IMG/VR virus record: IMGVR_UViG_3300029882_000002 | DNA length: 64,000 bases | Direction: 5' to 3' (one strand) | Origin: a virus | Shown: positions 25,361 to 56,377 of the stretch, in pieces | Position numbering within the stretch: position 1 is the first letter of the stretch | How the letters are laid out: every line of letters starts with the position of its first letter | The notes under the pieces: generated by a model | What the model saw: only the letters and a program-made list of their open reading frames with translations | Told to the model about the DNA's origin: nothing | Databases searched by the model: none | Made by a program: the position numbers and the translations under genes

Positions 25361-25441
25361 AGTTGGTTTACTGCATTCAAGTCGAAGCACTGAGCACTAA
25401 ACTATATTTACTATGTTGTGGAATAAGTCTAACAAAACATT

Positions 25442-25948
25442 TTACACATCTTGAACGTAATCGAAGCTCCAACCGATCTGTAGTGTAATCAGATTAGAGG
25501 CTCCACCGTCAAGCTCCACCTCGTTCACGGTCTCCGGCCACATACCGTAAACGTTAATAGTTCTACTAACTTGGGGTAAATCGTTATATACGACTATCTG
25601 ACCATTTACGCCATATGAAGACTTAAAAGTACCGCTATTATTAAGCCATGAACGGGCGCTTTCAGACCAAGCATAAAACTGAGCACGTGTACTCCAGTCA
25701 GAGGCTTCCATGAAAGTTGAATTAAAACTTCCCGTGTAAGTCTTCATGCCCGCATAGTTAAGTTTTGTTCCGTGCAAAGGAACTACAACTTTATCCATTG
25801 CAAAGCCAGGAAGGCCAGTGGTCATACATTTCCAGGTTAAGGCCTGTGTAGAACTAGAGCCTGGAATAGCTGGTAAAAAAAGATCAAAATTCCAAGACTG
25901 AGCTGGGTCGGCAACCGCTTGTACATCTGCTAAACTCGAACGTCCCAT
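25442..25948 (-). CDS. putative tail tube protein
   Basis: 168 aa, strong GAGGTG RBS. Size and N-terminal pattern (SWNFDLFLPAIPG ... LTWKCMTTGLPG) resemble gp19-type tube proteins. Close to the sheath gene. Confidence 0.55.
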   Translation of the reverse strand: MGRSSLADVQAVADPAQSWNFDLFLPAIPGSSSTQALTWKCMTTGLPGFAMDKVVVPLHGTKLNYAGMKTYTGSFNSTFMEASDWSTRAQFYAWSESARSWLNNSGTFKSSYGVNGQIVVYNDLPQVSRTINVYGMWPETVNEVELDGGASNLITLQIGWSFDYVQDV

Positions 25949-32752: not shown

Positions 32753-32910
32753 TATTCTGTCCAATAATATTTAATTTGATGAGGTAGATTAGTCCGGACA
32801 GGAACCAATCAGGGCCGCTAAACCTTTTCCCTCAAACTCGTTCAAGCTTCTGATAGAGAACCGCGCTAAACACGGAGTCTTAAGGCTTATTGTTGATTAA
32901 ACGTTGGTGC

Positions 32911-34002
32911 CTACACACGTAAACCTTTCGCGACGGATCTGCTGTTGGCGATAGACACGGCCAAACTTTCATACATCACCCATCCGCGACCCGGAATACG
33001 CTCAATAGAAATGTCGATAGGTTGCGATTGCAGGCCACCACGATCCGAGTAAGCACCGTGATTCAATGCATCGGCAATGACGAAGAACTCACCTTGGTTC
33101 AACACCTTATGTTCCGGATGACGATAAGCGTCCGAAGTAATCGTGCAACCATACATCACACCCAGTTCACCGGTCAGCAACAACTCGTGACGTGCAACCG
33201 GATCAATGGCGGCAAAGAAATCCGAATTACCGATGATGTCCTGATAGATATCGGTAGCGATCAGGACATGCGGTGCTTTCAGGCCCCAGCGCGTAACGTT
33301 CGTCATTACTTGAGCGAACGTGTAGGGCGTAAGCTGACCTGAGATAATCGACAGCGGATTATCAATACCTACGATCTGATTCACCTGGTTGTACCACAAG
33401 CGATCTTCACCCACCATGATTGCTTCGGTTGCTTCAACATACTTCTCTTGCAGAACGTCGCCAGCTGATTGGTTCAACTCGTTCATCGGAATAAACGGAC
33501 GAGTAACGACTTGCATTTCCGGCGGTGTAAACCATTTATCGCGAGTGATCTGCGACTGAATCTTGGTGGGGCTAGTCGAGTACACAGCCGTTACGTTTTT
33601 AGTACGCAAGGGGAACCGTGGGATAGCGCCTTGCTCGACGGTAATCTTCGTCAAGTACTTGCGCATAAAACCCTGACGATTTGCCGTGATATACAAAGAA
33701 TCGCTAATCTTTTCACCCAAGACACGATGGGCTTCTTTGTCGTTGAACGCTGCTTGCACTAGTTCGCGACTAAGCTTGACTTGTTGCTCTGCGCTAGCAA
33801 ATACACCATCAGCAGCCAAGGAACCATTCGAGGATGCAGCCAAGAACTTTTGTTGGCGGTTAATAAGGTCACGTTTATCCGATGCATTAATTTCACCGTT
33901 ACGACCAATTGCACGCTCACCTTCTTGCATGCCGTCGAAACGATACTCGGATGCTGCCACCATTGGCGTCTTCGACGCCCGAACCTGAACTTTTGTACGC
34001 AT
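32911..34002 (-). CDS. candidate major capsid protein
   Basis: 363 aa, GGAG RBS. Positioned after the protease, scaffold and a small structural gene. Size and composition fit an HK97-fold capsid protein. No database confirmation possible. Confidence 0.5.
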   Translation of the reverse strand: MRTKVQVRASKTPMVAASEYRFDGMQEGERAIGRNGEINASDKRDLINRQQKFLAASSNGSLAADGVFASAEQQVKLSRELVQAAFNDKEAHRVLGEKISDSLYITANRQGFMRKYLTKITVEQGAIPRFPLRTKNVTAVYSTSPTKIQSQITRDKWFTPPEMQVVTRPFIPMNELNQSAGDVLQEKYVEATEAIMVGEDRLWYNQVNQIVGIDNPLSIISGQLTPYTFAQVMTNVTRWGLKAPHVLIATDIYQDIIGNSDFFAAIDPVARHELLLTGELGVMYGCTITSDAYRHPEHKVLNQGEFFVIADALNHGAYSDRGGLQSQPIDISIERIPGRGWVMYESLAVSIANSRSVAKGLRV

Positions 34003-34908: not shown

Positions 34909-36552
34909 TTAAGCAAAAGGCAAAGGAGCTTTACCCGAAAGCACGGCCGCAGCATTTACCGAATAACCGGTTGAGCTTGCCTTTACTTCGTTGATACGGC
35001 GATGAATCGGTCCACGCAACAGCGCTGCTTGAACCGTGTTGGGGGCCTGTTCTTCTGCAAATTCATCGTTGAACTCGTCATCAGAATCACCAGCAGCGAA
35101 TTCCGATTGAAAATCCGGGCTAGCCGAGTCACCGAACAAGTCTTCTTCGTCATCAGTGCTGGTGCCTGCTTCATCGCTAGTCATGTCCAAGGCAGATGCA
35201 AATGCATTACGTTGAACTTCAGGCAAGCCCGAAAGTTTGTTAGCAACAGTGAGAATCGATTTAGCGTAATCCACACCGTAGCTAGCAAATACCCGACGAA
35301 CTAACGACACGCCACCGCGAACACCTGCAGCCTGCAATTCTTCTTCTAGGGCTGCACGCAGTTCATTGCGCGTATCCTTGAAGTACTGTTTGTTGATGCC
35401 AACAGCAGCAATTGCCAAGCATTGATTCAGGGCATCGTTAGAAACTTGATTAGAACGACGAACGGCAGCTGTCAATTTAGCGGCTTTAGCCTCAACACGT
35501 TTGTTCAGTACTTCTTGAGAACCTACGTTGACGGTGGCCAGTACAAATCCCATCTTTTTCAAGCCCGCACGCAAGCCATGTTTTTGCATCTCAACTTCAG
35601 TTACTTCCTGGAATTGATCCGACAAATACATGTCGCCATGACCCGCTTTTACAGCTACTTTTTTGCCCAGAGATGCAACAATACGATTAGCTTTAATTGC
35701 GTGAACTCGGGTCCCCACAGTAGCGAATACAACGTCGTCGCCTTCATCATCCGTACCATCTACGTCCAACAAGGCTACGTTGTCTGCTTTATCAGCAACG
35801 GGTGCAACTTCAAGCTCATCCGAATCTTCAGTGTCCGTGTCCGTGTCGTCTTCGTCGTCAAACTCCGAATTAACTTCTTCGGCGTCACCGGCGTCCCAGT
35901 TATCATCAACTTCCAACAGCGATTGAGGATTGTCACCGTCTTTCAATTCGACTTCCTCGTTATCGAAATCGGCATCGACTTCATCTGCTTCCTCCGTATC
36001 ATCCGAATCTTCAGTGTCAGTGTCTGCATCTGAGCCAACCGTCAAATAACCGGCAGCAGGATCAACTGCATTCGGAAGATTAGTGGTTGCTTGCTGGCCC
36101 GGTACATTCGGATCGTTGTCAGCCTTAACTTTATTGGCTTTCAAGGTTCCAGAATCAGGACCACCGGCTTTAAAATTAGCATCAGCATCGGGACCTTTAA
36201 CCGTATCTAGATCAACTTCATCAGCTGCATCATCAGCGTCCAATCTGGCTTGCGCAGGATGTTTCTTGGGCGAAACCTTCGACAGAGGAACTGGTTTAGT
36301 TTTACCCGGCTTAGCCGCTGCCGTGGTTCGACCCCCGTTGTTCATCTTCGATTTCTTGTTGTATTCTTCGTTGTTATTGAAGTGTGTAGAACCGCCTTCG
36401 TCGTCCTCCGGATCAGTCAGAGTTTCCGGCACTTGATGGTTCAAAGCCTGTTGACCATTATCGTCAGCGGGCTTCGTCGTGTTATTTGGAAAATGCGTGC
36501 TGGTGCTAGACTGGGCTTCAGCTTCGACTTTCCGCTTGGTACCGATGGTCAT
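34909..36552 (-). CDS. highly acidic protein, putative scaffolding protein
   Basis: 547 aa with long D/E tracts (DTDTEDSDD..., duplicated) and a helical C-terminal half. GAGGAA RBS. Located between the protease and capsid candidates. Confidence 0.5.
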   Translation of the reverse strand: MTIGTKRKVEAEAQSSTSTHFPNNTTKPADDNGQQALNHQVPETLTDPEDDEGGSTHFNNNEEYNKKSKMNNGGRTTAAAKPGKTKPVPLSKVSPKKHPAQARLDADDAADEVDLDTVKGPDADANFKAGGPDSGTLKANKVKADNDPNVPGQQATTNLPNAVDPAAGYLTVGSDADTDTEDSDDTEEADEVDADFDNEEVELKDGDNPQSLLEVDDNWDAGDAEEVNSEFDDEDDTDTDTEDSDELEVAPVADKADNVALLDVDGTDDEGDDVVFATVGTRVHAIKANRIVASLGKKVAVKAGHGDMYLSDQFQEVTEVEMQKHGLRAGLKKMGFVLATVNVGSQEVLNKRVEAKAAKLTAAVRRSNQVSNDALNQCLAIAAVGINKQYFKDTRNELRAALEEELQAAGVRGGVSLVRRVFASYGVDYAKSILTVANKLSGLPEVQRNAFASALDMTSDEAGTSTDDEEDLFGDSASPDFQSEFAAGDSDDEFNDEFAEEQAPNTVQAALLRGPIHRRINEVKASSTGYSVNAAAVLSGKAPLPFA

Positions 36553-36879: not shown

Positions 36880-37785
36880 CTATAAAAACTGCTGAGGTTT
36901 TGAACTTCCAGGGACATCTAAATCTGCTTTTACTTCTGACGTCCAAGGATACTCAACCCAATCTGAAAGGGCTGACGCCCAAGCTGGATCCCGAACAATG
37001 GAACACTCTATCGGACTTATTCCGTGAGCATTCAAAAATGCTAAATGCGATGAGCCATCATAATCTTGATAGCGTTTCCAATTGACGTTGTCCGTACCTG
37101 AAGTATGTGAGCAACGTCTGTCCTTAGAGCAAACGGTTCCGCAATAACCGCAGGTAAAACTATCGACTAGAGCACCCATAGAATAAGTATTAATTGTTCC
37201 ATCTAAAACCTGTTGAGCAATGTCCGGATACTTATTTTTATCAATGCCTAAAAGACCCATCACTTTCCACAGTTTTCCATTCCCATAACCCTGGACTTTA
37301 TTGAAAGATGCGTCAAAGATAACTCCATGTGCCGTGGAGCAGTCCTCATTGGAATGTTCCTCATGGATCGGGCAACCTACCCAGGCCTTATAAGACAATC
37401 TGTTTATTGGTGGTGGTTGAAATCTTACTAATTCGGAACGCGGAAATGCAATGCCGTTTCGATTAGGAAGATCGGATGGACATATAATAGTCCGGACCAA
37501 TATGTAGTCTTCAATACGGGGCGAAATTTTGTAGACCGGAGCACAGAAGGGTAGCCATGTTGCGTAATCCAGTTCACTAATTCGCGCCATTTCTTTTTCA
37601 GCTTCAAACGTTTCGATTGATCGCTGAAGGTTATCTACTGAGTTGGTTTCTAACGTGCGTTCTAGAGGCACAGTATCGGCTGTAACTTGATGCTGGTATT
37701 TAGCAACACTAAGCTTTTGGTGGGCACTGACACTGACACTGGCACGGGCACTCAGAAATGATTTTGGTACCTGAAGGTTAGCCAT
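36880..37785 (-). CDS. putative prohead (maturation) serine protease
   Basis: 301 aa. LPNRNGIAFPRSEL ... GCPIHEEHSNED ... GKLWKVMGLLGIDKNKYPDIAQQVLDGTINTYSMG follows the HK97/T4 gp21-type prohead protease pattern (His in the ..EEH.. block, Ser in the ..YSMG.. block). Located upstream of the scaffold and capsid candidates. Confidence 0.5.
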   Translation of the reverse strand: MANLQVPKSFLSARASVSVSAHQKLSVAKYQHQVTADTVPLERTLETNSVDNLQRSIETFEAEKEMARISELDYATWLPFCAPVYKISPRIEDYILVRTIICPSDLPNRNGIAFPRSELVRFQPPPINRLSYKAWVGCPIHEEHSNEDCSTAHGVIFDASFNKVQGYGNGKLWKVMGLLGIDKNKYPDIAQQVLDGTINTYSMGALVDSFTCGYCGTVCSKDRRCSHTSGTDNVNWKRYQDYDGSSHLAFLNAHGISPIECSIVRDPAWASALSDWVEYPWTSEVKADLDVPGSSKPQQFL

Positions 37786-38742: not shown

Positions 38743-41700
38743 TTAAATTGTGTTGTTTTCAGTTTGGCGAAATTTCAATTTTCGTAACTTATTGAATTCT
38801 CTGGACAGCGATTTAGCATTAGTTATGGTCATACCTAGGGCCACTATTTTACGCACGACGTCCCGCACTTCTTTTACTGAGCCGTAAAATGACATGGTGG
38901 ACTCGCTCTTGTGCCATTCATAGGTTGGTCGTTTAAATCGCATAGCAGCCTTCGTACCTGCTTGGCCTACTGCCGGTAATACCAAGTAAGGTACGCCGTT
39001 CTGGATCATCGGATAAGGCTTGTAAACGTGTTTATCGTTATTCGGTTTGTGCTGCAATTGATAGAAATTCACCGTCTTTGATTTAGATAAAGCTTTGACC
39101 ACGGATTCATGGTCAGAAACTTCTTCCTCGACTAAAAGATGCAACATAGCTTGGAGGGATTCCCGCACACCGTTTTTGTAGACCGACGGATCAGGAGTCA
39201 GCCCCTTCTGACGCCAGAGTTTGAATTGATTTCTTAGGGCCGCAGCATTCTTGACCTCAGAATAATAAAAGTCAGACATGGGTCGCAAGCCACACTTAGT
39301 CAACAATTGAATTGCAGCCTGACTACTATTGGTCATCACGTAGTCAATGCCCAAGAAGCCATTGGCAACCACGAATTCTAGGCGAATAGTGGTGTCGGCT
39401 TTACGCTGGCGCTCACGGACTTTGTACTCGCGAACTTTGATCTTGGTCTCTTGCTTCTTAATTTTTGCTGCTAATCCTTTGGAAGGCTTCCAAGATGTAG
39501 CCAAGGTGTTAATCGAACGAGTGACAGGAAAATCGCCAACTAAAGTCAATAATTGTTCTCTAGTGTCGTGGGCCACTGAATCAGGAGCAAGCAAGAACAC
39601 TTGAGACTTGTGGGTCTGCACGGAATAGCTGTTGAGCAGATCAATCGTAATCAGCGCATTGTTAGGAGCACATTTCGAAATATAGCCGTTGCCATATTCC
39701 GTGTGGACTAGTCTGTGTTTGAGTTCCTGTGCTTTCTGTTTGCGTTCAATCGAGACCTGATCGCTACCCGAGTCATCAGAGAATTCATTCTCGTCATCGT
39801 CATCGGAGTCTGAGTCAATATTGGTATTCAGATTGAGGAATTCGTCAATACGAATAAGACCTAGAGCTTCGGCCCCAAACAAATTCATCCCCGGAGTATA
39901 GACCGTGCTAGTCAGTAACTTGGTATCTGCGGGTGCCTCAGCAACAGGAATTAATTCTAGAGCTGGGGCCTTGCCATACTTAGCGATGTAGTCCTCTTTG
40001 TACTGACGGTAGTCCTCATCACGTACCTTCACATAAACAGCTTGTGCCTTTGCATAGTCCAATAGTCCTGGATTATCTGGGCCTAGGGCCACCCAACTAT
40101 TGAACTCGATAATTGAGTCAATAGTCATGCTGATAGTTGGTACATCAGGAATAGTGGAATACTCAGCGTTGTCCGCGTTCTCAAACTTAGCAGCTGCAAT
40201 TACCTTCGAAATTAAGCGTGCGCTTTTCGTGATGTCAATCGTGCGATCAGCAACCACAGTGTCAAAGAAGATTTCTTTGCGGAATTCTTCTTTCTTGAGT
40301 TCCGGTCTATCGATACGAGAATTACCTTGTTCCAATGTACCTGGGTTCCACGGACTTTCACATCTGATCAATCGGTCTGAATGCTGAAAATTGAGACCTT
40401 CATTCATGGACGCCTCTACACCCGCCATCCATCGAATGGTCTTAATCTTTTCGTACTTAGCGCCATCCTCGATCTTACGATGAGCCTTATATAGTATTCC
40501 GCACTCTTTTAATTCTGGGCCTGCCAGTTCATAGATTTCTTCAGCAGAAATAATGTTGTTGGTGAAGATCAGGACCTTGCCGGGAAAAGGTCCGTATTGG
40601 ACTTTCTCGCCAGTATCAGGGTCCGTAATTAAGCCACCGAAAATATGCAAGCGTACACGTTCAAGAATAGCTAGAACCTTAGGGCTAATTGCATCTTCAC
40701 CCTGTAGTTGATCAGGTGCGATCTTTCCCGGCGCAATGATGAATTGTTCTAGAGTTGCTAGATAAGGCATGATCGCAGTCTCTGTCAACTCACCTGAGTC
40801 TTCGTCTACTGGATTATCGTAGTCAAAGTCCTCAGGTGCCTCGCCCTCGACGTCTTGGGCAAAGAATTTACGCAAGGCCAGCGCCTTTTTCCTTGAACCC
40901 TTGATCGAGTCCTCTTGCATTTTCTTTAGTGCGCCAGCCAGCAAATCGTTGTATACGCTCTGCTGATTAGGTGTCAGAGTCACACCACCAATCCATTCGC
41001 GCTTGGACGGCAATAATGCAGCCCACTCCTTGCGCATAGCCCTGGCCTCTACAATCCGGGATCTGATTTTAAGCATGATCTGGACCTGGGCACCAGGCTT
41101 CCATTCAACTACACGGTCACTTTTGACGATCAAGCCATAAGTATTATTGAAGTTCTCACGTGATCCAAAAAGCGTTGGGTCCAGAGCCATAATTTGGAGG
41201 GCTAAATCCGATGGCGAATCGTGAACCATGGTTCCGGACGCCAGTCGTTTCTTTGGAATGTCTGTGATCAACATCATGGCTGCACGTGTACGCGCCGTAT
41301 TATTCTTGACGCGATGGGCCTCGTCTAAGGCTGAATAACCGAAGTCGAATTGACGCAAGAAATCAATGACAGGAAATACCTGGATCGGGGTCGTTCCGTA
41401 ATTAATTATTCGATTGAAACCCTTGGGCACGTAGCTCAGGGTGTCATAGGCAACAAACACCACGGTGTTACGTGGTGCCTGCTCAAACAGGGTCTGCAGA
41501 CGTGCGAATCCCAACTGGCGTATGGCAGAATTGGTGATAGCCAATACGTTCAGTTGTCCGTTAGTAAAGTACGCAACTTCTTTTACGTAGTTCGATACCA
41601 AATGACCTGGGCACAAAACAATGTAAGGATCATTTGAATTTTCTTTAATTTCGTACAATATGTCGGTGATAAGAAGTAAACTTTTTCCACCCCCTGCTTG

Positions 41701-43401
41701 TACGGGTAGAATTGCTAGGTCAGGACTGTCCTTCAGTAAATTGCGTACTTTCTTTTGATGCGGCAAGAACCCAATATTCGGAGCCAGCAACGGAATAGCT
41801 GGAATTTCCCAATCAGGATCAACACCCTGATTAATTGCTGCATACCGATTGGCCTCATCATTGGTGCGTACCCATTCCATCCGTGATGCATATTTAGCAA
41901 TCAGGGTTAGCCAGGGCAGCATTTCAGTAACAGAGGCTACACTCCATTTCGTGTACACGGCCTCCAGGTTTTCATTGATAGCTGTTTCAAGGATAGCGAA
42001 ATACCGGGCCAATGATCTGAATGGCCCGAAACCTGTTTCGCTTATTTCGGAAAACTTAATTGATGATCGATCTTCATATCTTTGATGAAGTACCACAGAT
42101 GCTTTAAACCAGTCTTGTGGACCGGCCGCACTATCAAATGTATGTTGAAGCTGCGGCTCTAGGGCTAGGCCCTCAAAATCCGAATCTTGAATGCATGAAC
42201 GAAAGAAATTGGGATCAATGCCTGCGCTCTTGCCCATGCGAGCAAACCAGTCTACTTTTTCTGACGTAATAAACCGGTTGTCCAACAGTTCACGGATGTG
42301 CGAAATATCTGCCTTGCGATGACGTGTTAGGTCCTCAACATGCAAGTTTCCCTGAGTGTTGGTGTACGAAAATTTGTTGTTCACCCAGTCAAGGGCCACC
42401 ACCATGTTATGTGGGAGTTGCGTCCTAGCGTCAGTTTGTGAGCCTAATTCTAGGTTAGCTGAGGCTAGAGTAGATAAAGCAAAACAATCGTTGTGAGTCC
42501 CGGCCTGTGCATAGCGATCTTCATAAACAATTGCGTTATTTCGATCTACTGTTAGAGGAATAAATTCGGGTTCGCCAACAGGTGAAATAGAAATATTGTA
42601 CTTATTTGTACGAGCGGATTCAACGTGATCTGGAGGCAAGCCAAACACGATTTTCGAAATCGGAAACGAAGCAGTGCTAGGCAGTCCTCGTTCGCCAAAG
42701 CCTGAACCTACCCAGTGCAGAATCAATGGATAGATATCGATGTCACGAATCTGAGACCACTCGGTGGTCGTTAGTTGTTCGGCCTCGTCCTTAGCTATTT
42801 TGAAGTCCGCAAAAATGATGTACAGATGTCCTCTAACTTGGACTTTTAATTCTAAGAAGCAATTGAGCAACGCCTGTTTAGTTGTGGCCTTGATGTCTTT
42901 CAGGTTAGCGATAACAGTAGCTGCCGGGACACTTCTTGTGGACACAAAAGAAAGGGATTCGTCACCCAAAAGTTCAGCAAATTCTTTGTACTCTTGAACC
43001 TGCTGCATGTTGGCTTCTGGACCATGCGTTTTCTCACCCAGAAACCAGTCTTTCAAGAAGGCTAATGGCGCACCCCACGTGTCCTTGCTAAAAGATGCCA
43101 GCGGCAATGACACCTCGTAATGAGGAATATGTGCATCGTCTACTTTGTTGATTGATAAATAGGTCTTCGGATTTATTTTTCTTAATTTTTCGGCCAACAA
43201 TCGACTGGAGCCACGGCGTGGGTCTGCAACAATCGAAGGAAAGAAGGTTGACGCCCACAAAGTAGTCAGAAAGAAAGACGGACTCCCACTGTATTTTTCT
43301 GTGTAGAAATGCATGAAGCGCTCACCCATAAGACGTCGGTTGAGCTTCAGGTGCTGAGGTACCACCAAATTCGATTTGGGCCTTAGCTTGTCTTTTAGCA
43401 T
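38743..43401 (-). CDS. 1552-aa SNF2-family helicase-domain protein
   Basis: Central SNF2 core: LPHQKKV ... PVQAGGGKSLLLI (motif I), ALDEAHRVKN (DEAH), later NFQHSDRLIRCESPWNPGTLEQGNSRIDRP (helicase C motifs). Flanked by ~540 aa N-terminal and ~500 aa C-terminal regions with no motif I recognise. Confidence 0.8.
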   Translation of the reverse strand: MLKDKLRPKSNLVVPQHLKLNRRLMGERFMHFYTEKYSGSPSFFLTTLWASTFFPSIVADPRRGSSRLLAEKLRKINPKTYLSINKVDDAHIPHYEVSLPLASFSKDTWGAPLAFLKDWFLGEKTHGPEANMQQVQEYKEFAELLGDESLSFVSTRSVPAATVIANLKDIKATTKQALLNCFLELKVQVRGHLYIIFADFKIAKDEAEQLTTTEWSQIRDIDIYPLILHWVGSGFGERGLPSTASFPISKIVFGLPPDHVESARTNKYNISISPVGEPEFIPLTVDRNNAIVYEDRYAQAGTHNDCFALSTLASANLELGSQTDARTQLPHNMVVALDWVNNKFSYTNTQGNLHVEDLTRHRKADISHIRELLDNRFITSEKVDWFARMGKSAGIDPNFFRSCIQDSDFEGLALEPQLQHTFDSAAGPQDWFKASVVLHQRYEDRSSIKFSEISETGFGPFRSLARYFAILETAINENLEAVYTKWSVASVTEMLPWLTLIAKYASRMEWVRTNDEANRYAAINQGVDPDWEIPAIPLLAPNIGFLPHQKKVRNLLKDSPDLAILPVQAGGGKSLLLITDILYEIKENSNDPYIVLCPGHLVSNYVKEVAYFTNGQLNVLAITNSAIRQLGFARLQTLFEQAPRNTVVFVAYDTLSYVPKGFNRIINYGTTPIQVFPVIDFLRQFDFGYSALDEAHRVKNNTARTRAAMMLITDIPKKRLASGTMVHDSPSDLALQIMALDPTLFGSRENFNNTYGLIVKSDRVVEWKPGAQVQIMLKIRSRIVEARAMRKEWAALLPSKREWIGGVTLTPNQQSVYNDLLAGALKKMQEDSIKGSRKKALALRKFFAQDVEGEAPEDFDYDNPVDEDSGELTETAIMPYLATLEQFIIAPGKIAPDQLQGEDAISPKVLAILERVRLHIFGGLITDPDTGEKVQYGPFPGKVLIFTNNIISAEEIYELAGPELKECGILYKAHRKIEDGAKYEKIKTIRWMAGVEASMNEGLNFQHSDRLIRCESPWNPGTLEQGNSRIDRPELKKEEFRKEIFFDTVVADRTIDITKSARLISKVIAAAKFENADNAEYSTIPDVPTISMTIDSIIEFNSWVALGPDNPGLLDYAKAQAVYVKVRDEDYRQYKEDYIAKYGKAPALELIPVAEAPADTKLLTSTVYTPGMNLFGAEALGLIRIDEFLNLNTNIDSDSDDDDENEFSDDSGSDQVSIERKQKAQELKHRLVHTEYGNGYISKCAPNNALITIDLLNSYSVQTHKSQVFLLAPDSVAHDTREQLLTLVGDFPVTRSINTLATSWKPSKGLAAKIKKQETKIKVREYKVRERQRKADTTIRLEFVVANGFLGIDYVMTNSSQAAIQLLTKCGLRPMSDFYYSEVKNAAALRNQFKLWRQKGLTPDPSVYKNGVRESLQAMLHLLVEEEVSDHESVVKALSKSKTVNFYQLQHKPNNDKHVYKPYPMIQNGVPYLVLPAVGQAGTKAAMRFKRPTYEWHKSESTMSFYGSVKEVRDVVRKIVALGMTITNAKSLSREFNKLRKLKFRQTENNTI

Positions 43402-44676: not shown

Positions 44677-45126
44677 TTAACCCGCACTTTCAGTCAGACG
44701 TAAAGCGGCTTTGAGTTGCATGGGTGCAACGCCGTCACTAATCATTGCATCTTTGTCACCGTCAATTCCGGTCCCCACATCGTTGATGCCAACACCGTCA
44801 TTTAATGTTGAATCCTGCAATGCTTGCTGGCTAGTAGTTCCCGCTGGTGCCCCGTCATTTAACACCAAGTCTTCAACGCTAGTTGTGTTCGGATCGTACT
44901 CGCCGTCCAGCACTTCTTCGCTCTCTGTCTGGGGTGGTTGAACTATTTCAGCCACTACTTCTTGTTCAATTTCGTTGGTGTCGGCCAACATGGCATAAGC
45001 AATTGATTCTAAACTTTCATGATCAACACCAACGGACTCAGCCAGCGCGTGGAACTGAGCATCAGACGGTTCAGGATTGATCTGAAGAAACAAAGCAATT
45101 AGGCTTACAAGTTTTTGATTATCCAT
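44677..45126 (-). CDS. acidic protein ending in the AAxRL tag
   Basis: Start placed at ATG 45126 (longest ORF begins at GTG 45150). The C-terminus is ...PMQLKAALRLTESAG-stop. Confidence 0.6.
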   Translation of the reverse strand: MDNQKLVSLIALFLQINPEPSDAQFHALAESVGVDHESLESIAYAMLADTNEIEQEVVAEIVQPPQTESEEVLDGEYDPNTTSVEDLVLNDGAPAGTTSQQALQDSTLNDGVGINDVGTGIDGDKDAMISDGVAPMQLKAALRLTESAG

Positions 45127-45139
45127 GACAGGTTTCTCT

Positions 45140-45520
45140 CTATAGGGCACGCAATTGGGACAGGACTTCGTCTAGTCCAGGTACCTTTTTATTTACTTCC
45201 GTTGCTGCTTTTCCGATTGAAGCCAGTAAGCTTTGATCATCCGAGCCTTCGGCCTTTAATTCGTACTTGTATTTAGAGGCCTTGAAATAAAAGTTTAAGT
45301 CCTCATCAACCGTACTGAAGTTCAAGACCGCTTGATACTCGGAAGTGCGCCAGATCAAAGACTGGTTGGTAGACGATCTATCATCCAGCAGAAAATGAAT
45401 GCCTAGAATTCTTTTTAGAATGGTCAGCACGTTTTCCACGTCCTCGGGACCTGCCTCTATGTTGGTGCCTTTCTCATCGGCGTCTGCCAATAGGCGTAGG
45501 GCTGCTGTGATCATGGTCAT
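45140..45520 (-). CDS. hypothetical protein with N-terminal AAxRL tag
   Basis: 126 aa, begins MTMITAALRLLADAD. AAAGG RBS. Confidence 0.65.
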   Translation of the reverse strand: MTMITAALRLLADADEKGTNIEAGPEDVENVLTILKRILGIHFLLDDRSSTNQSLIWRTSEYQAVLNFSTVDEDLNFYFKASKYKYELKAEGSDDQSLLASIGKAATEVNKKVPGLDEVLSQLRAL

Positions 45521-46377: not shown

Positions 46378-46385
46378 TGTTAGCC

Positions 46386-46733
46386 TCAAATGGAAAAGAA
46401 AATTCTTAACGCTACCTGCACGCGCTGCAAGCATACGCCGTCGTTACCCTTAACCGCGAACGAAACCCTTTTGAATATTCCAGGGCTTGCATTCATGGCG
46501 TACTTTAAACGGTTCAAAACTTCAACAGAGGCTTCGGCCTCACGTCCAACATCCTCTGGATTGCTCTTGTGGAACATCAAATGTGGGTGTACGAATTTAT
46601 AAATTAAGCCGTGCTTGCGCAACTCGGCCTGTATTTTACGAAGCTCATCACCTTTACCTTCGTGAATTTGAGCCTCTACTTTTTGTTCTTCATCTTCTAT
46701 AGCTTTCAGTCTCTGAGCTGCATGCACGTACAT
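46386..46733 (-). CDS. hypothetical protein with N-terminal AAxRL tag
   Basis: 115 aa, begins MYVHAAQRLKAIEDE. AAGGA RBS. Confidence 0.65.
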   Translation of the reverse strand: MYVHAAQRLKAIEDEEQKVEAQIHEGKGDELRKIQAELRKHGLIYKFVHPHLMFHKSNPEDVGREAEASVEVLNRLKYAMNASPGIFKRVSFAVKGNDGVCLQRVQVALRIFFSI

Positions 46734-47293: not shown

Positions 47294-47590
47294 TTAGTGC
47301 CAGTAACTTAAGTTCAGGTTTCCACCGTGGACCCCAATAGAGATTTCATGATTGGCTTTGGTGTACGTGTCCAGGCCGTCAACTTCGGATGCCTTCTTTG
47401 CGTAGCTAAAACCTGCGATCTCTAAGTTATGAATAAAACGTGCGGCCTTTTCATAAGCATCTTTAGGTGAACTGCATCTGAAAATATTGGTGCCCAGTTT
47501 AAGTTTGAACCCACCTTCTTTTTCTAGGTCCTCACCGGCATAAACCGTAGTAGTTGAGGCCAGTATTCGCTGACGTGCATTTGTTTTCAT
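47294..47590 (-). CDS. hypothetical protein with N-terminal tag variant
   Basis: 98 aa, begins MKTNARQRILASTT. Confidence 0.6.
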   Translation of the reverse strand: MKTNARQRILASTTTVYAGEDLEKEGGFKLKLGTNIFRCSSPKDAYEKAARFIHNLEIAGFSYAKKASEVDGLDTYTKANHEISIGVHGGNLNLSYWH

Positions 47591-47593
47591 AGT

Positions 47594-49126
47594 TTAAATT
47601 CCACGATTTCCAAAGTATCCTGGAGCATAAGCTCCCCACATTGAGGCCTGCGTAATCGTAATTCCTACGGCACCGATTGCTCCGTGTTGAAGTTGACCAG
47701 CGTTGACCGATCCATCACCTGAAGTATTTCCCTTGATAATAAGATTGGTTTTGATCAGCTTCAATTCGTTATCTAATCGGGTTTGAATAGCAGTTGCAGC
47801 AGCCTCTAAATATTGAGTTCTATCTACGTCTAAACTAATTGCTGCACCTTGAAAATTAAAGGATTTCTCAGCCTCCGAAAGATAAGCACTGGCTAAGGCG
47901 GCAGCTTCACTGCATAGTAACCAAAATTCACGAATACCACCCAGTGCATTTGTGAACGTGAAATTAGTAAACTGTCCATAAGCGATATTGAATGCGTCAC
48001 CACCACGGCGTAGCCAGGTTAAAATAGTTGAAGCAGGGAACAACATATCAGGTGTTCCATAAAGCGTAGTCCGTGCCTTATTAATCTTGGCTTTAACGTC
48101 ATTGACCGCACTCATGATCGACGGATTAACAACAAAGAAATCAGCATTTTCCTGATTGATGATTCCCGTATTAGTTGATGCCCAGTATTTCCAAATTATT
48201 TGGTAGGGAACTAGGGATACGCCTAATCCCGAGGTATCTAATACACCAGCAAAGTACCAACCATTAGCAGTTCTTTCATAGGCTTGAATCTGGGTCGGGG
48301 CCACTACTTGAGTGGGTCCAGCCCATAATTCGACTGTCACATTATCATATAGCGTGTCCAACACAATTGAAACAGTAGCTGGTACACCCTGGAGCTCGAC
48401 TGATGGTTGGGTACCCAATGGAACTGTGTTCAACCCCACCACCCGAACGTTCTCGAATTGAAAAAATACGTTCTGGCCTAGGTTCCCTGCTGTGGGATCA
48501 GGTGGTGTTCCATACTCTTGACTTAGACTTAGCGTATATCTTAATTGATAGGCTTGTCCATCTAATGATGGTGGGACTGTAACGGGCACCGTAATAATAG
48601 ATTTGGCAACTACAGTATTGGCCAACCCATTTGATTGCACAGTGTAGTCGAAAGCATTACCTGCGGCATAAACAGTACCGTCTGAGGCTAGAAATTCCCA
48701 GGTAACAAAACCACCGGAAGGGTCTATTTGCGGGGGAAACGCAAATACGGATGTTCCGACGGCTGCTTTACCGGCTTCTATTTCGTCTACTAAGTCTTGG
48801 AACGCATCTGGATTTTCAGTGGTGTAAGGAATAAATTCTGCTTGTGAAACTGATGTGGCGACAGTGACGATGAATACACGAGCATTAGTAGTAATTGTTA
48901 ACTGAAAGCCATAACTAAGTCCGTCATTGCCGCCCGTAATCGTTAATCCAATTACCGAGCTAGTGCCTGTCGTGACTGTTGCTGACAAAGGAGTGCTAGT
49001 GACGGGACTGGCTGTACCTACAACGATGCTGGTGATTGTCTCAGCCCCAATCAACATTGAGGTTACATCAGCAATAACGGCTATATCTGTTGTTGGTGTC
49101 TTAAAATAAACATAAGGTACGGCCAT
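47594..49126 (-). CDS. hypothetical protein, probably a virion structural component
   Basis: 510 aa, AAGGA RBS. Beta-rich T/V/G composition typical of structural proteins. No diagnostic motif. Confidence 0.6.
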   Translation of the reverse strand: MAVPYVYFKTPTTDIAVIADVTSMLIGAETITSIVVGTASPVTSTPLSATVTTGTSSVIGLTITGGNDGLSYGFQLTITTNARVFIVTVATSVSQAEFIPYTTENPDAFQDLVDEIEAGKAAVGTSVFAFPPQIDPSGGFVTWEFLASDGTVYAAGNAFDYTVQSNGLANTVVAKSIITVPVTVPPSLDGQAYQLRYTLSLSQEYGTPPDPTAGNLGQNVFFQFENVRVVGLNTVPLGTQPSVELQGVPATVSIVLDTLYDNVTVELWAGPTQVVAPTQIQAYERTANGWYFAGVLDTSGLGVSLVPYQIIWKYWASTNTGIINQENADFFVVNPSIMSAVNDVKAKINKARTTLYGTPDMLFPASTILTWLRRGGDAFNIAYGQFTNFTFTNALGGIREFWLLCSEAAALASAYLSEAEKSFNFQGAAISLDVDRTQYLEAAATAIQTRLDNELKLIKTNLIIKGNTSGDGSVNAGQLQHGAIGAVGITITQASMWGAYAPGYFGNRGI

Positions 49127-49129: not shown

Positions 49130-49900
49130 TTATCCTTGAACGGGTGTACTTGGGAGCATTATATTATTGACGCCCATACCTGTTCGTGTAGGGTGGTCCC
49201 CAAACAAATCAGGCTCTGAATTTAAATCCTCTGTCGTGGTACCGAACCCAGGTTCGTCAACTAGTTTGGCACTAACTGAAGAACCGAGGTCCTTTAAGTC
49301 TTCAAAACTAAAAGAGGTTCCCAGCATCAAAAGTCGTATCAAATGTGACTTAGCTATTCTTTCTCTAGTCTTTGGTGACAATATTTCGAGACCCATCAGG
49401 TCAATAAGATATGTAGGGAACACTGAAGCTAGGTTCCTCCACAACAGGTTGGCGGCTCTAGAATGTGAGTCACCGGTCATCAGACAATTACCGGCTTCAA
49501 GAAACCATGAATAGATACTTGATACTATTTTCTGCTTCTGATGATCGGGATTAATCTCAGCATGAGGCGTGTATAGCTTGTTGCCCAGGGCACTTTTCAA
49601 CTCCATGGTTTTACCATTGAACTGTGTGGCACCAATGCTATTAAAAGTCACCAACCCCACTAAAGAATCTTGAGGATAAGCATCAAGTAAATCGTCATGG
49701 ATAAAAATATAGAAACTATAATTAAAGCTAGCTACGGTCAGCCAAATATTAGGTCTATCTGTTTCGACTATCCGTAATTCACCTTTCGCCTGAACCCTTA
49801 GCCATTCTTTGATAACAGCATCATGATCGTAATTAGGGCCTTCAAATGTACGGAGGGCCAGCAGTCTTGATGCTGCATAAACTTTAGTTAAGCCTTCCAT
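49130..49900 (-). CDS. hypothetical protein with N-terminal AAxRL tag
   Basis: 256 aa, begins MEGLTKVYAASRLLALRT. Confidence 0.65.
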   Translation of the reverse strand: MEGLTKVYAASRLLALRTFEGPNYDHDAVIKEWLRVQAKGELRIVETDRPNIWLTVASFNYSFYIFIHDDLLDAYPQDSLVGLVTFNSIGATQFNGKTMELKSALGNKLYTPHAEINPDHQKQKIVSSIYSWFLEAGNCLMTGDSHSRAANLLWRNLASVFPTYLIDLMGLEILSPKTRERIAKSHLIRLLMLGTSFSFEDLKDLGSSVSAKLVDEPGFGTTTEDLNSEPDLFGDHPTRTGMGVNNIMLPSTPVQG

Positions 49901-49920: not shown

Positions 49921-51204
49921 TTAGAACTGCAATAGTTTAGCTATCTGGAGGCCCGTGAATCCAAATTTGGAACCCAAAACCTCAGCGTCATGAGGAATGA
50001 CCGCCGATTTAATACCCGAGGTTAGAGGTTCAAACGATATGAATTTCGCACCAATCTTCACTCTAAGTTTTACGACCGGACTATTGGCAAACAAACGTTT
50101 GACCTCAAGATAAAGCGGATACTTAATTTCGTCTATCTGTTCGACAGTAGTATTCGCTTTGAGTCTAAAAGATATACATTTAGCATCAACGTCAACTTTC
50201 TTTATATAATCACAGTAGTTAAACATAGAAGCACTGAACTTGGAAGGATCATTCTTCATTCTGGTAGACAGTGGAATAGCAGCTAGGCTAGTACTGAAGT
50301 TCTCTTGTTCCAAAAGTTTGTCTATCACCACTAAGGCTTCGTTCAATGAACTAACCTCGGAACCGCCATCAACTAGTAACAGATTGGGTAAGTCAAATTC
50401 ATGATTAACCTGAATTTGAATTCCTTGGTTCACAGTCCATTGAAGGCTGATGTAGAGATGGGGCGTTACCTGTAGGTCATCATTCTTTACGTTCTTTAGC
50501 AAGATGTAATCCGTAAAGATTAGGGCTCCGTCTTTGACACTGACGTACAAAAACTGTTCCTTGTGCTCGAATATAACGTGCTCTTGAAGCTCTTGGACTA
50601 ATGTCGATACGTAGCTCTGAAACACTTTAGGTACGTAGTGTGAGGCCACGCTGCTCAAGAATTCTAAAACGTTTTTTAACTGAAAGCCAATCTTGTCCTT
50701 CAGTGCTTTTAACAGTCCGTAGGCCTTCGTGTAAGGCTCGCCCCGCTTATCCGTGAACTGTATAGCCAACTGCGTTTCTAGGGCCTCTAAAGCCCTGTAT
50801 TTCTCGTACAAGTCTTCTGACAATACATATTGCGTATTCAGCTGTTCAATTTTGGGAACCAAGGTCTTCAAGGACTCATGATCAGGATCAGTTTGAGTCT
50901 CGCCGTCTAGACTCAAGCCGCTGGCCTTAACTAGGCAGGGATGAGTGTGGATTTGTGCCTGATTTAATTTTGCTAGTTGTTGCTGCTGGACTCCACTTAG
51001 CTGACTTAATTCTTTAACCGTGCTTCCCGTCTGGTCAAGAAATCGAGCAACATCGTCAATATATCGGAACTTAGGTAGCTCCAAGGCACAAATACGAGCA
51101 GCTGCCTTGACTTGAGTTCTTGGTTTATTTTTTGACGTTTTAACGTTACCTGTTTTATCTTTAGTCGTGCTTGCTTTCAATCTCTGGGCTGCATTGGTAG
51201 CCAT
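49921..51204 (-). CDS. hypothetical protein with two tag copies
   Basis: Start placed at ATG 51204 (AAGGA 5 nt upstream; longest ORF starts at 51210). Begins MATNAAQRLKAS, with a second copy QVKAAARICALEL about 30 aa in. Confidence 0.65.
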   Translation of the reverse strand: MATNAAQRLKASTTKDKTGNVKTSKNKPRTQVKAAARICALELPKFRYIDDVARFLDQTGSTVKELSQLSGVQQQQLAKLNQAQIHTHPCLVKASGLSLDGETQTDPDHESLKTLVPKIEQLNTQYVLSEDLYEKYRALEALETQLAIQFTDKRGEPYTKAYGLLKALKDKIGFQLKNVLEFLSSVASHYVPKVFQSYVSTLVQELQEHVIFEHKEQFLYVSVKDGALIFTDYILLKNVKNDDLQVTPHLYISLQWTVNQGIQIQVNHEFDLPNLLLVDGGSEVSSLNEALVVIDKLLEQENFSTSLAAIPLSTRMKNDPSKFSASMFNYCDYIKKVDVDAKCISFRLKANTTVEQIDEIKYPLYLEVKRLFANSPVVKLRVKIGAKFISFEPLTSGIKSAVIPHDAEVLGSKFGFTGLQIAKLLQF

Positions 51205-51251
51205 GATCATCCTTAAGCTAATGTGCTGGGCTGTGCTTGTCTGATGTTAAA

Positions 51252-53847: not shown

Positions 53848-54423
53848 CTAGCGGATCGAAAGTTCGGAGTTAACCAATCTGGATGCTGCATTGACTTTGA
53901 CACCCGTGCTTAAATTCTGTGCTCTACGTTTCAAGGCTTGCTCCAACACGAATTGCACATGTGGATCATCCAGTACCGCTTTAAGTCCTGGATGCATTGG
54001 CTGAGGCCATTGATTGAAAGCTGTCCAAATAGCAGCCGTCGATTCTGACCTGAATTCTGATTCTGGGTTGACTACGAACTGCTTGGGGACAGTAACAAAA
54101 TAAGTGTGGTACTCAAAGCCTTTTCCATTTCTGGATACCTTGAGCGGCATTACAGACCACTCACCGTTATAGCCGGTCTCTTCTCTGAGTTCCCGGCGTA
54201 GGGCATTGACCAAGTCTTCTGCGCCGTCAACGGAGCCACCCCACGTTCCGTAGCAATTCGGTGTATCAGAATGAGGACCACGTAGCTGGAAACTAAAGTT
54301 ACCGGTGTCTAGGGCCAGTACTAAGGCTCCGACTGCTTGGTGATATCCTCTGATGCCGGGTCCCCAATTCTCTTTATCCTTAGACGCCTCTATAGCAATA
54401 AGTCGTGACGCTGCTTTTATCAT
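53848..54423 (-). CDS. Nudix hydrolase flanked by AAxRL tags at both termini
   Basis: Nudix box GGSVDGAEDLVNALRRELREETGY (G-x5-E-x7-REUxEExGU). Start placed at ATG 54423, 1 nt after the upstream stop, giving MIKAASRLIAIEAS. The C-terminus is GVKVNAASRLVNSELSIR-stop. Confidence 0.8.
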   Translation of the reverse strand: MIKAASRLIAIEASKDKENWGPGIRGYHQAVGALVLALDTGNFSFQLRGPHSDTPNCYGTWGGSVDGAEDLVNALRRELREETGYNGEWSVMPLKVSRNGKGFEYHTYFVTVPKQFVVNPESEFRSESTAAIWTAFNQWPQPMHPGLKAVLDDPHVQFVLEQALKRRAQNLSTGVKVNAASRLVNSELSIR

Positions 54424-54424
54424 T

Positions 54425-55873
54425 TTATAGTCCACTGTCAGTTCGAAAATTAGAAAAGGCCCACACATCTGAGTCGTCGTGCTCGTCGTCATACAGTTCA
54501 CGATTTGCATGGGCTAGGGGCGTCCAATCGCTGTAGACCGCAGCAATAGGCCCAAGGAAGGGCGAAGCGATGTTTAACACGAATTCAAATGGTAGGTCCT
54601 CTGGTTCGCAATAACCTTGATTAGGATTGTCCAGCATCCAAACAATAGCACCTAACATTGAACCCACTACCTGCAATGTTGTTGCGTTTTGCCCTTCTAC
54701 CAGTTCCCGTGATTCTTCGATAGAAAGTTGCGATCCGTACCACAGGGCATTCCGTTCATGACCTAGAAGCAAGACCCCTAGTTCATCGATTCCGCTCTGA
54801 ATACTATTTTTAGCAATTCGGGTCTTTCTGTGCATCCACAATTCTTGTCCCTTCATTTCATGGACAGACGCAATTGCAGCATCACACGGTTGATACGCAT
54901 AGTAACAGGTCGGTCGATAATTCTCTGTACTAAAGTATTCGCTGATAGTGATGGCTTCCGAGTGCTGAATCAAATAGCCGTTGAATGTACCGCCCAAAGG
55001 TACCCACGACTTAACCGTGGTCTCCACACCCGGTTGCTCTAGATAGAGCACAGAGCCACCAGCGAGTTCTTTACCGTCAGCAGGAATCTCTTTTTCGTGC
55101 GTGCCCCACCCCATTTCTGCTGGTGCTCGACCCTCAGCCCAGAACCCTTCACAGCTCCAGGTGTTGACGAATTCATTAACACGCTTGGGTTCTTTCAGAA
55201 TTTGTGTATCGCGCTCAGCCGTTTGAATTATTTTCACATTCAGGGCTTCAGCTAGCATTCCCCATTGCTCTTGGGACTCAGGGGTCCCTGTTTTCAGACC
55301 TGTATCTTTTGCGAGTTTGAGCAACGCCGCTTTAACAAAATGCGAAACTAGACCTGGATTAGCTCCATGCGTCACCACACAGGTAGAGGCCCCAGGATAG
55401 GCCGAGGCCATTCTTCGCATTTCTTGATGCGTTGTGTAGAGCGTGCGTTCACCCAGTTCCGGAATGATTTCGTCGGGTTCAGTAGCCCAACGTTCGATAG
55501 ACGTGTCAATGTAGAGCACATTATTTTGTAGGCACCACTCAACGATTTCTAGTCCGTCTATGTTCAAGCTTACGTTAATCAGTAAGTCACCGGGACTCAA
55601 TAATTCATTTAGTGTTGGCACCAAATTAGATTTGACGATTTCACGATGAACGTAAGTTACACCCAAATCTTCGTATTTAGCAAATTCAGGGCGTACCTCT
55701 TTATCCAGAACGACTACCGCGCTAGGACTTACATCGAGGTGACGTAGAATTACGGGGAGAATCGATTGACCAACACCACCGAAGCCTAGGACCAGGATAT
55801 GTCCTCTGTGAGTTGCTAGTTTTTCGTGTTGATCCTCCAGCAGTCGTTGTGCAGCGTGTATTTGAACCTTCAT
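54425..55873 (-). CDS. homospermidine synthase-like NAD-dependent enzyme with N-terminal AAxRL tag
   Basis: Rossmann motif LGFGGVGQS near the N-terminus, plus HGANPGLVSHFVK and WSCEGF...PAEMGWGTHE blocks, as I recall them from bacterial homospermidine synthases. Start placed at ATG 55873 (AAGGA RBS), giving MKVQIHAAQRLLEDQ. Confidence 0.65.
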   Translation of the reverse strand: MKVQIHAAQRLLEDQHEKLATHRGHILVLGFGGVGQSILPVILRHLDVSPSAVVVLDKEVRPEFAKYEDLGVTYVHREIVKSNLVPTLNELLSPGDLLINVSLNIDGLEIVEWCLQNNVLYIDTSIERWATEPDEIIPELGERTLYTTHQEMRRMASAYPGASTCVVTHGANPGLVSHFVKAALLKLAKDTGLKTGTPESQEQWGMLAEALNVKIIQTAERDTQILKEPKRVNEFVNTWSCEGFWAEGRAPAEMGWGTHEKEIPADGKELAGGSVLYLEQPGVETTVKSWVPLGGTFNGYLIQHSEAITISEYFSTENYRPTCYYAYQPCDAAIASVHEMKGQELWMHRKTRIAKNSIQSGIDELGVLLLGHERNALWYGSQLSIEESRELVEGQNATTLQVVGSMLGAIVWMLDNPNQGYCEPEDLPFEFVLNIASPFLGPIAAVYSDWTPLAHANRELYDDEHDDSDVWAFSNFRTDSGL

Positions 55874-55904
55874 ATCAATCCTTTTAAGCACTTTCACTTT
55901 CAGC

Positions 55905-56342
55905 TCACGCAACGCTGATAATTTTTGTTTTATTTCCTATGTCCTCTAATTCTACTTCGTGCTCACCTTTACTGAAATGATTGACCTCGGCGGACCTAGC
56001 CTTTGCCCAGTCGTTTGCATAAAGCTTGGCCTCAACGTCTTTTAACGGCGCGTCAACGATCACGAAGTCCTCGTTGTCCGGACGTTCATACGCATACTGC
56101 AGTGTATTTACCCAACCCTCGAAAGCATCTGCTTCCATCTTGGAGACCGCGACTAGGCGTAAGGCTGCTTCAACTTTAGTGCTACCTGTCATTTTGTGAT
56201 AAATATAATTAGTCAAAGCATAGGGCTCTTTCTTGCCGCTGCTTTTCTTGGCCTTATCCTCAGCGTCCTTCCATTTATGTTCAAGACTTTTCTTGCTACC
56301 TTTGCCTTGTTTTACGTCATGTTTAATTATGTTATTGGGCAT
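55905..56342 (-). CDS. hypothetical protein with Lys-rich N-terminus and internal AAxRL tag
   Basis: Start placed at ATG 56342 (GGAG RBS). The tag TKVEAALRLVAV is encoded at 56145-56180. Confidence 0.6.
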   Translation of the reverse strand: MPNNIIKHDVKQGKGSKKSLEHKWKDAEDKAKKSSGKKEPYALTNYIYHKMTGSTKVEAALRLVAVSKMEADAFEGWVNTLQYAYERPDNEDFVIVDAPLKDVEAKLYANDWAKARSAEVNHFSKGEHEVELEDIGNKTKIISVA

Positions 56343-56377
56343 TGTTGAGACTCCAATCAACTTAGTAAAATCGCTGA

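Follow-up and report, generated by a model that had tools for sequence, protein, structure and literature searches.

The idea of a shared address peptide is familiar from encapsulin cargo peptides and from the encapsulation peptides of microcompartments. Encapsulin cargo-loading peptides are short and modular, stand at either terminus outside the enzyme fold, and direct enzymes into a shell of the HK97 fold. In bacteriophage T4, the internal proteins and the ADP-ribosyltransferase Alt share a capsid-targeting sequence that binds the scaffolding core and is cut off by the head protease; foreign proteins have been packaged with its help (PMC5694885). In phage P1, DarB and other proteins have an N-terminal region that is needed for packaging, and the term capsid targeting sequence is used there as well (PMC9024508). 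Here we describe a peptide tag of about 12 residues, with the consensus M-K-[LIV]-x-A-A-x-R-L-[LVK]-A-[ST], that recurs among the proteins encoded by a 64,000-nucleotide stretch of viral DNA (IMG/VR record IMGVR_UViG_3300029882_000002, called the window below). The tag is selected as a peptide, is modular and specific to one phage clade, lies outside catalytic folds, and is confined to the block of virion genes, where it is carried by a homospermidine synthase (HSS) and a Nudix hydrolase among others. HSS in phages of the phiRSL1 type is already known and validated; of the tag itself we found no prior description in the searchable literature. An earlier, sequence-only reading of the two enzyme genes had supposed that an enzyme fused to a shared addressing peptide was undescribed, a supposition that the capsid-targeting sequence on T4 Alt contradicts (PMC5694885).

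The core of the tag, AA.RL, occurs 13 times in the 72 proteins of the window (18,640 residues), compared with a mean of 0.48 and a maximum of 5 in 5000 per-protein shuffles. Nine copies lie inside the first 20 residues of a protein, where the shuffle mean is 0.027. Overall, the core is enriched about 27-fold, and at N-termini about 300-fold; it is the commonest gapped 4-mer in the window proteome. All 13 copies are in minus-strand coding frames; the plus strand holds a single copy, out of frame. A position-specific scoring matrix (PSSM) built from the 13 copies gives them scores of 23.6 to 32.2 and finds three weaker copies at 12.2 to 16.1, with just one more match at the reporting threshold, on the plus strand (11.6). 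The tagged proteins number 12 to 14 and include unrelated folds. Their genes all lie at 22.7–56.4 kb among those for the portal, protease, capsid, sheath and tube, within a minus-strand virion block that runs from about 56.4 kb down to 21 kb. No tag was found in the gene-dense replication block on the plus strand (3.9–20 kb) or in the genes at 56.7–64 kb.

Synonymous codons vary between the copies (Arg is CGA, AGA, CGC or CGT; Leu is CTG, CTT, TTG, CTA or TTA; Ala uses all four GCN codons), and the tag is thus selected at the protein level. The same codon diversity, together with the existence of C-terminal and internal copies, rules out a DNA or RNA signal. C-terminal copies are found in the Nudix hydrolase and in the product of 44677-45150, and internal copies in those of 55905-56360 and 26461-27234. 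Because copies occur at N-termini, at C-termini and at domain boundaries, the tag is better understood as a binding epitope than as an N-terminal signal.

The larger of the two tagged enzymes has the following features.

54425..55873, minus strand: HSS gene, 482 amino acids, N-terminally tagged (Pfam, PDB match, AlphaFold2, Foldseek)
55832..55873, minus strand: tag of HSS, residues 1-14, MKVQIHAAQRLLED, with the core AAQRL at 55841-55855
55769..55786, minus strand: NAD-binding loop GFGGVG of HSS, residues 30-35, GxGxxG type
55879..55883, minus strand: ribosome-binding site AAGGA, 7 nucleotides upstream of the HSS ATG

This gene encodes a true homospermidine synthase of the bacterial type (EC 2.5.1.44), inside the family that the sequence-only reading had named. 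The protein matches the Pfam domains Sacchrp_dh_NADP (PF03435) and Sacchrp_dh_C (PF16653), and a phmmer comparison with solved HSS structures gives E-values of 8e-119 for the Legionella enzyme (2ph5) and 9e-111 for that of Blastochloris viridis (4plp). Its AlphaFold2 (AF2) model, with a predicted local distance difference test score (pLDDT) of 89.8, superimposes on B. viridis HSS in Foldseek with a template modelling (TM) score of 0.90 and a root mean square deviation of 2.1-2.2 A; the runner-up family is carboxyspermidine dehydrogenase, with an E-value of 1e-14 and a TM score of 0.6. The catalytic residues E127, E220, W239, E247 and H304 align with E117, E210, W229, E237 and H296 of B. viridis HSS, which are residues mutated in structural studies, and are invariant across 50 homologues, as are G30, G32 and Q36 in the same 50-sequence alignment. 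E306, likewise catalytic, is aligned too. The protein is 58% identical to phiRSL1 hss (ORF110), whose activity has been demonstrated biochemically (PMC9992855). The window enzyme is predicted to form homospermidine from putrescine with NAD+, the demonstrated activity being solely that of the 58%-identical phiRSL1 enzyme. The protein starts MKVQIHAAQRLLE. In the AF2 model the tag is a predicted helix of low confidence (residues 5-13) preceding the Rossmann strand at residue 26.

The second enzyme is encoded immediately downstream.

53848..54423, minus strand: Nudix hydrolase gene, 191 amino acids, tag at both ends (PF00293, E 9e-9)
54388..54423, minus strand: N-terminal tag, residues 1-12, MIKAASRLIAIE
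54172..54240, minus strand: Nudix box by sequence reading, residues 62-84, GGSVDGAEDLVNALRRELREETG
53863..53901, minus strand: C-terminal tag, residues 175-187, VKVNAASRLVNSE, 4 residues before the stop

That this protein is a Nudix hydrolase, as had also been proposed, follows from the Pfam match, from the Nudix box Gx5Ex7REUxEExGU, present as GGSVDGAEDLVNALRRELREETGY (residues 62-85), and from the Foldseek matches, all of which among the best 50 listed are Nudix proteins (E about 1e-6 to NUDT17/18, Dcp2 and RppH). G62, E69, R77, E78, E81, E82 and G84 are invariant in the family. The AF2 model is of moderate quality (pLDDT 72). With respect to the substrate subfamily, NCBIfam matches fall far below cut-off and Foldseek scores are similar for NUDT17/18, Dcp2, RppH, NudC and MutT. 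The family is small and confined to the phage clade, and all eight members begin with the tag, with R7 and L8 invariant. The C-terminus of the window protein reads ...VKVNAASRLVNSELSIR; this second copy recurs in one homologue (P0122, IKVNAAQRLL) and is missing in the other six members. The sequence-only reading had both enzymes beginning with the tag, the Nudix protein ending with another copy, and the neighbouring dCMP deaminase (53353-53814, minus strand) lacking it; we find the same on all three counts. In the AF2 models of HSS and the Nudix hydrolase, the tags are short terminal helices of low confidence outside the catalytic folds.

The starts of these two genes had been placed at ATGs supported by ribosome-binding sites directly after the upstream stops, a description that needs correcting for HSS. 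The Nudix ATG at 54423 is 1 nucleotide past the HSS stop and has only a weak GTGGA as ribosome-binding site. The HSS ATG at 55873 has AAGGA as its site and is separated from the upstream stop by 31 nucleotides. Both starts are supported by the homologues, every one of which begins at the corresponding position. In the database, HSS (P0001, 495 amino acids) is instead called from a TTG 13 codons upstream (window 55873-55912), which overlaps the previous gene and has no backing from homologues; their N-termini, like the ribosome-binding site, point to the ATG at 55873. AAGG-type sites also precede most other N-terminally tagged genes. These sites (weak for Nudix), together with the homologue N-termini, rule out mis-called starts as the source of the tag. 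Its retention in 18 HSS and eight Nudix homologues argues that the tag is translated.

Searches for near-identical DNA returned no match among 50,697 phage records, and membership in a clade was established from protein searches rather than from a DNA match. The major capsid protein of the window is 82% identical to that of Burkholderia phage BcepSauron, 77% to that of Ralstonia phage phiRSL1 and 61% to that of Achromobacter phage Motura, and the window therefore derives from an uncultured jumbo myovirus of the clade that has these three phages as cultured members. A contig of up to 230 kb carries the window's Nudix protein.

Comparison of HSS proteins in and near this clade shows that the tag behaves as a cassette. 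Among the most similar homologues (57-69% identity), 18 begin M-K-[LI]-x-A-A-x-R-L. The orthologous HSS of phiRSL1 lies in the same gene neighbourhood as that of the window (Nudix, dCMP deaminase and portal module); however, it is untagged and starts MDKVGNIQLDGF, whereas in the window HSS and the 18 closer homologues those same 12 positions are occupied by the tag. The exchange is sharpest between one tagged homologue (P0011), MTVKAASRLLGS-TKYHKPEGKIVILGFG, and phiRSL1 HSS, MDKVGNIQLDGF-TKYHKPEGKIVILGFG, where only the first 12 residues differ and TKYHKPEGK follows in both. Another large group of homologues begins directly MQKLARPxGRIVILGYG, and the alignment of the solved bacterial HSS structures does not start until query residue 19-24, as they lack the tag segment. 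Motura HSS is also untagged (MQGRNVFIIGCG); its gene is far from the head genes and adjoins one for glutathionylspermidine synthase.

The tag pattern recurs in five related genomes or contigs, and in every genome examined the tag is densest between the portal and capsid genes. In phiRSL1 it takes a slightly looser form, AA(x)xRL, and the residues after it are often ATE or STE, in other cases TAE. Within the 38.8-100 kb region of this phage, the nine N-terminal tags are restricted to 58.2-77.4 kb, a stretch that begins with the Nudix gene and ends shortly upstream of the gene for the acidic, scaffold-like protein; no tag was found in the other approximately 42 kb examined. The tag also indicates different starts for two genes in the phiRSL1 record (L001/L064): at position 60211 it suggests that ORF111 starts at MKYSVKGAVERL, with the annotated start 15 codons further upstream, and at position 69428 that ORF126 starts at MYDIKAAVNRL, with the annotated start 21 codons further downstream. 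The first 110 kb of BcepSauron contain about nine tags, three of them C-terminal, and the convincing ones lie only at 33.5-56.8 kb. Motura has about ten, of the form M-x-I-Q-A-x-x-R-L. Two uncultured sources yielded about ten (contig L062) and seven (L002/L063). PaBG, a relative with proteomics, is more distant (its capsid protein is 35% identical to that of the window), and the part of it examined, 41 kb surrounding the capsid gene, holds no tag.

Additional enzymes are tagged in the relatives. On the 249-kb contig L070, a protein with a Zeta_toxin domain (a P-loop kinase; L070:11442-12740) is tagged MKTQAATRLLADWW and its gene adjoins that of a tagged HSS. A protein with an SprT-like metalloprotease domain in L062 (L062:1226-2563) is tagged MKLQAAYRLMAAK, and the same contig has a tagged Nudix protein of a second type. 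The set of tagged enzymes therefore differs from phage to phage.

The remaining tagged proteins of the window are the following.

55905..56360, minus strand: lysine-rich 151-residue protein, internal tag TKVEAALRLVAV, core at 56154-56168
49921..51210, minus strand: 429-residue tagged protein upstream of the portal, MIMATNAAQRLKAS, with a weak second copy VKAAARI
49130..49900, minus strand: 256-residue tagged protein adjoining the portal, MEGLTKVYAASRLLAL
47294..47590, minus strand: 98-residue protein with a weak tag, MKTNARQRILAS (PSSM score 16.1)
46386..46733, minus strand: 115-residue tagged protein, MYVHAAQRLKAIE
45140..45520, minus strand: 126-residue tagged protein, MTMITAALRLLAD
44677..45150, minus strand: 157-residue protein with a C-terminal tag, MQLKAALRLTESAG, ending at the stop
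26461..27234, minus strand: 257-residue protein with an N-terminal and an internal tag
23117..24442, minus strand: 441-residue basic tagged protein, MKLNAAFRLLST, isoelectric point (pI) 9.5
22764..23120, minus strand: 118-residue tagged protein, MNIKVNAAQRLVAT, with the highest PSSM score

Searches of PHROGs and Pfam gave nothing useful on the families of the tagged proteins of unknown function. The BcepSauron orthologue of the 44677-45150 protein, gp090, likewise ends in the tag. The internal tag of the 55905-56360 protein matches the C-terminal tag of a separate 71-residue BcepSauron gene product, gp098 (L065:3538-3753), and the window protein looks like this small protein with an added C-terminal domain and the tag at the junction. 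A uniform charge of the cargo, as in T4 internal proteins, was looked for and not seen; the pI values of the tagged proteins range from 4.1 to 9.5.

These genes are interspersed with those for the virion itself.

47594..49126, minus strand: portal protein (phrog_17327, E 2e-81)
38743..43401, minus strand: SNF2-type helicase, 1552 amino acids, between portal and protease
36880..37785, minus strand: head maturation protease (phrog_18299, E 8e-83)
34909..36552, minus strand: very acidic 547-residue protein, pI 4.3, between the protease and capsid genes
32911..34002, minus strand: major capsid protein (phrog_2522, E 1e-97)
28155..30107, minus strand: tail sheath, virion block
25442..25948, minus strand: tail tube, virion block
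Virion block, minus strand: 233-residue virion structural protein

The tag is short, independent of position, present on unrelated folds and confined to the virion block, and for these reasons it reads as a cargo-loading or capsid-targeting peptide. Gene context and analogy make a capsid address the best-supported reading, and we put the chances at about even that the tag recruits cargo into the prohead as a position-independent docking helix. Under this proposal, a short helix active at the N-terminus, the C-terminus or an internal position would dock to one partner in the assembling head, which could be the scaffold-like 547-residue acidic protein, the inner face of the capsid or the portal. 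Unrelated proteins bearing the tag would become encapsidated cargo, and HSS and the Nudix hydrolase would be packaged and either delivered with the DNA or active inside the particle. The head protease, which is Glu-specific, might then remove the tag from some cargo where a small-x-E or L-x-E site lies close by. The two enzymes might be injected along with the DNA and act early, or HSS might provide the DNA in the particle with polyamine. We infer the binding partner, the packaging, the cleavage and the enzyme roles in the particle alike.

Two proteins of the head module are candidates for parts in such a process. The acidic 547-residue protein is a plausible receptor, being encoded at the usual scaffold position between protease and capsid gene; because of this place, and because it is kept as far as PaBG, it is probably a scaffold or core protein. 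The label 'ATPase' that it bears in relatives, which could have pointed to a translocase, is not supported, as the protein has no Pfam or NCBIfam match, shows no Walker A motif by eye, and is extremely acidic and of low complexity. A TAAVRR segment in this protein was also tried as a tag and dropped, being part of a conserved domain found in PaBG as well. The head maturation protease is a candidate for the removal of tags. Giant-phage head proteases are reported to have A/S/G-x-E specificity (PMC5694885), and this is matched both by the small-x-E sequences (ATE, STE, TAE) that follow many phiRSL1 tags and by the conserved small-x-E site AASE[FY]R in the N-termini of the capsid proteins of the window, BcepSauron and Motura.

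Several observations weigh against loading into the head. A Glu is found within eight residues after RL in 36 of 56 tags compared with roughly 42% expected, which is a weak signal, and in most tagged HSS homologues the segment from the tag to the conserved QKLA motif lacks Glu, so removal of the tag does not appear to be general. The phiRSL1 HSS is enzymatically active yet untagged, and packaging is thus not needed for HSS function. The public annotations of phiRSL1 (GenBank notes) give no hint of a virion location for the tagged proteins; reviews put the virion proteome of this phage at 25 proteins. Furthermore, some tagged genes adjoin the sheath and tube genes, and what the tag addresses might be the tail or the interior of the virion instead of the head; the tagged HSS gene of L070 has no recognisable head gene among its called neighbours, which are small genes without family matches.

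The last two points would also suit a tag that docks to a common partner outside the head interior, such as a tail or neck assembly hub, a phage chaperone or a late-infection complex, with the enzymes co-localised rather than packaged. The lack of a consistent cleavage site is in keeping with this idea, as is function at either terminus and internally, which is like that of a general short linear motif. We nevertheless consider it unlikely, given that the tag is densest between the portal and capsid genes in each genome examined and is missing from replication genes and most metabolic genes; no candidate hub is known outside the virion module.

Proteolysis offers a different explanation, and one that we regard as quite improbable. 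Here the tag would be a recognition element, either a propeptide that holds enzymes inactive until it is cut by the head protease or by a papain-like peptidase (21084-21845), or a degron that limits protein lifetime. The block does encode two proteases, the head maturation protease and a C1 peptidase. The capsid protein, expected to be the main protease substrate, has no AAxRL. Small-x-E sites do follow many tags, especially in phiRSL1, and internal copies lie at domain boundaries. However, the invariant AA, R and L of the tag differ from the Glu-based motif reported for the head proteases of giant phages (PMC5694885), a cleavage site would not fit into most tagged HSS homologues, and it is difficult to see why one small enzyme should have a degron at either end. 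Finally, the notion that the copies share no function and reflect mis-called starts, a nucleotide signal at gene starts, or the paralogy of small proteins, some of which do look paralogous (phiRSL1 ORF123, 124, 127 and 133; the L002 genes at 20646 and 21008), is effectively refuted by the unrelated folds that are tagged (HSS, Nudix, Zeta_toxin, SprT-like), by C-terminal and internal copies with synonymous codon variation, by starts backed by homologues and AAGG-type sites (weak for Nudix), and by the enrichment itself.

If the tag does load cargo into the head, it would be a functional analogue of the T4 capsid-targeting sequence, the giant-phage propeptides, the encapsulin cargo peptides and P1 Dar packaging. 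As in T4, where MKTYQEFIAE is carried by IPI-III and a related propeptide by Alt, a peptide of 10-20 residues would be placed on unrelated head-internal proteins that include an enzyme, in a myovirus with a head maturation protease; the T4 peptide is modular and can be moved to foreign proteins (PMC5694885). What we observe in the window corresponds to this functional class, in that a short peptide is common to several head-module proteins of unrelated fold. However, there is no sequence similarity between the AAxRL core and YQEFIAE. MK[LIV]xAAxRL does not resemble MKTYQEFIAE, and the tag is thus at most an analogue of the T4 sequence and not a member of its group. In addition, the tag described here is also found in C-terminal and internal positions, a cleavage site does not seem integral to it, and its cargo includes metabolic enzymes, whose packaging we infer.

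The jumbo myoviruses phiKZ, 201phi2-1 and SPN3US resemble the proposed system in having many head-internal or ejected proteins, which are processed after Glu (S/A/G-x-E), and in SPN3US the N-termini of gp53 and gp54 are conserved between diverged paralogues (PMC5694885). Their propeptides, in contrast, are mostly longer than 100 residues and do not share one common short motif. The clade of the window is also a different lineage, and no shared tag was seen in the PaBG-like relative examined. Encapsulins differ in being cellular nanocompartments without DNA whose cargo peptides have another consensus, and for them binding to the shell interior is structurally proven. P1 loads large enzymes into a myovirus head and injects them, and the head module of the window encodes a large helicase-type protein (38743-43401). 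P1 packaging, however, proceeds via a hierarchy of partner proteins rather than one short peptide common to a dozen proteins, and the 1552-residue helicase of the window is untagged. This SNF2-type protein, which recalls the packaged DarB of P1, is kept in phiRSL1, BcepSauron and Motura.

A wider proposal is more tentative, and we judge it somewhat less than evenly likely to hold. It is that a portable 12-residue address, used across the clade at either protein end, equips the virion with an exchangeable enzyme kit (polyamine synthase, Nudix hydrolase, zeta-toxin-like kinase and SprT-like protease). These enzymes would reach the next host together with the DNA, or would act on the DNA in the particle, conditioning it for instance with homospermidine made at the packaging site. 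The existence of tagged and untagged HSS orthologues suggests that the kit would change by gain and loss of the cassette. If the tag is indeed a loading signal, it would amount to a list, readable from sequence, of what jumbo phage particles contain, including metabolic and possibly anti-defence enzymes not expected in virions, and cargo sets would evolve by cassette swapping. The old question of whether phages themselves manage the polyamine counter-ions of their packaged DNA would become testable, and foreign proteins could be directed into large capsids by a short tag that works at either terminus. Even if loading is not its role, the tag remains a short linear motif, not described before, that more than 50 phage proteins have in common.

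Many other viral HSS genes have N-termini of another kind. Those on contigs L004 (6394), L018 (9965), L032, L005 (859) and L037 (9995), with a GC fraction of 0.32-0.39, start MKTFKAFRQQLIE, MKKFKDFLIEQ, MKNFIDFLAEQ or MPIQPFKEFDK. These starts resemble the T4 sequence MKTYQEFIAE, including an [LI]-x-E site, and several of the contigs carry T4-like replication genes. They could be another case, of independent origin, in which HSS has been given an address. No convincing partner proteins sharing such N-termini were found within ±10 kb, a search in which the positive control, L002, scored just slightly higher.

Other genes of the window are mentioned here for completeness. Upstream of the tagged block, two of the genes at 56.7-64 kb match nucleotide pyrophosphohydrolase and nicotinamide phosphoribosyltransferase, the latter (62871-63950, minus strand) untagged. 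Two small untagged genes on the minus strand (57706-57948 and 58779-59057) appear, by sequence reading, acyl-carrier-protein-like from their DSLD/DALH motif. Three genes resembling HNH or homing endonucleases break the structural block (31724-32764 and 45549-45875 on the minus strand, 27321-28106 on the plus strand). A DNA methyltransferase gene (24488-25390) lies between the tail tube gene and that of the tagged 441-residue protein, and the papain-family Peptidase_C1 cysteine protease (21084-21845, minus strand) is encoded at the end of the virion block, right after two tagged genes. The head module also includes a gene for a PKD-domain protein (45889-46434, minus strand), whose conserved N-terminus, NYTNAKAALVAAGLPTSAGSNW, is a motif different from the tag and is present in phiRSL1 ORF121 and in L002 as well.

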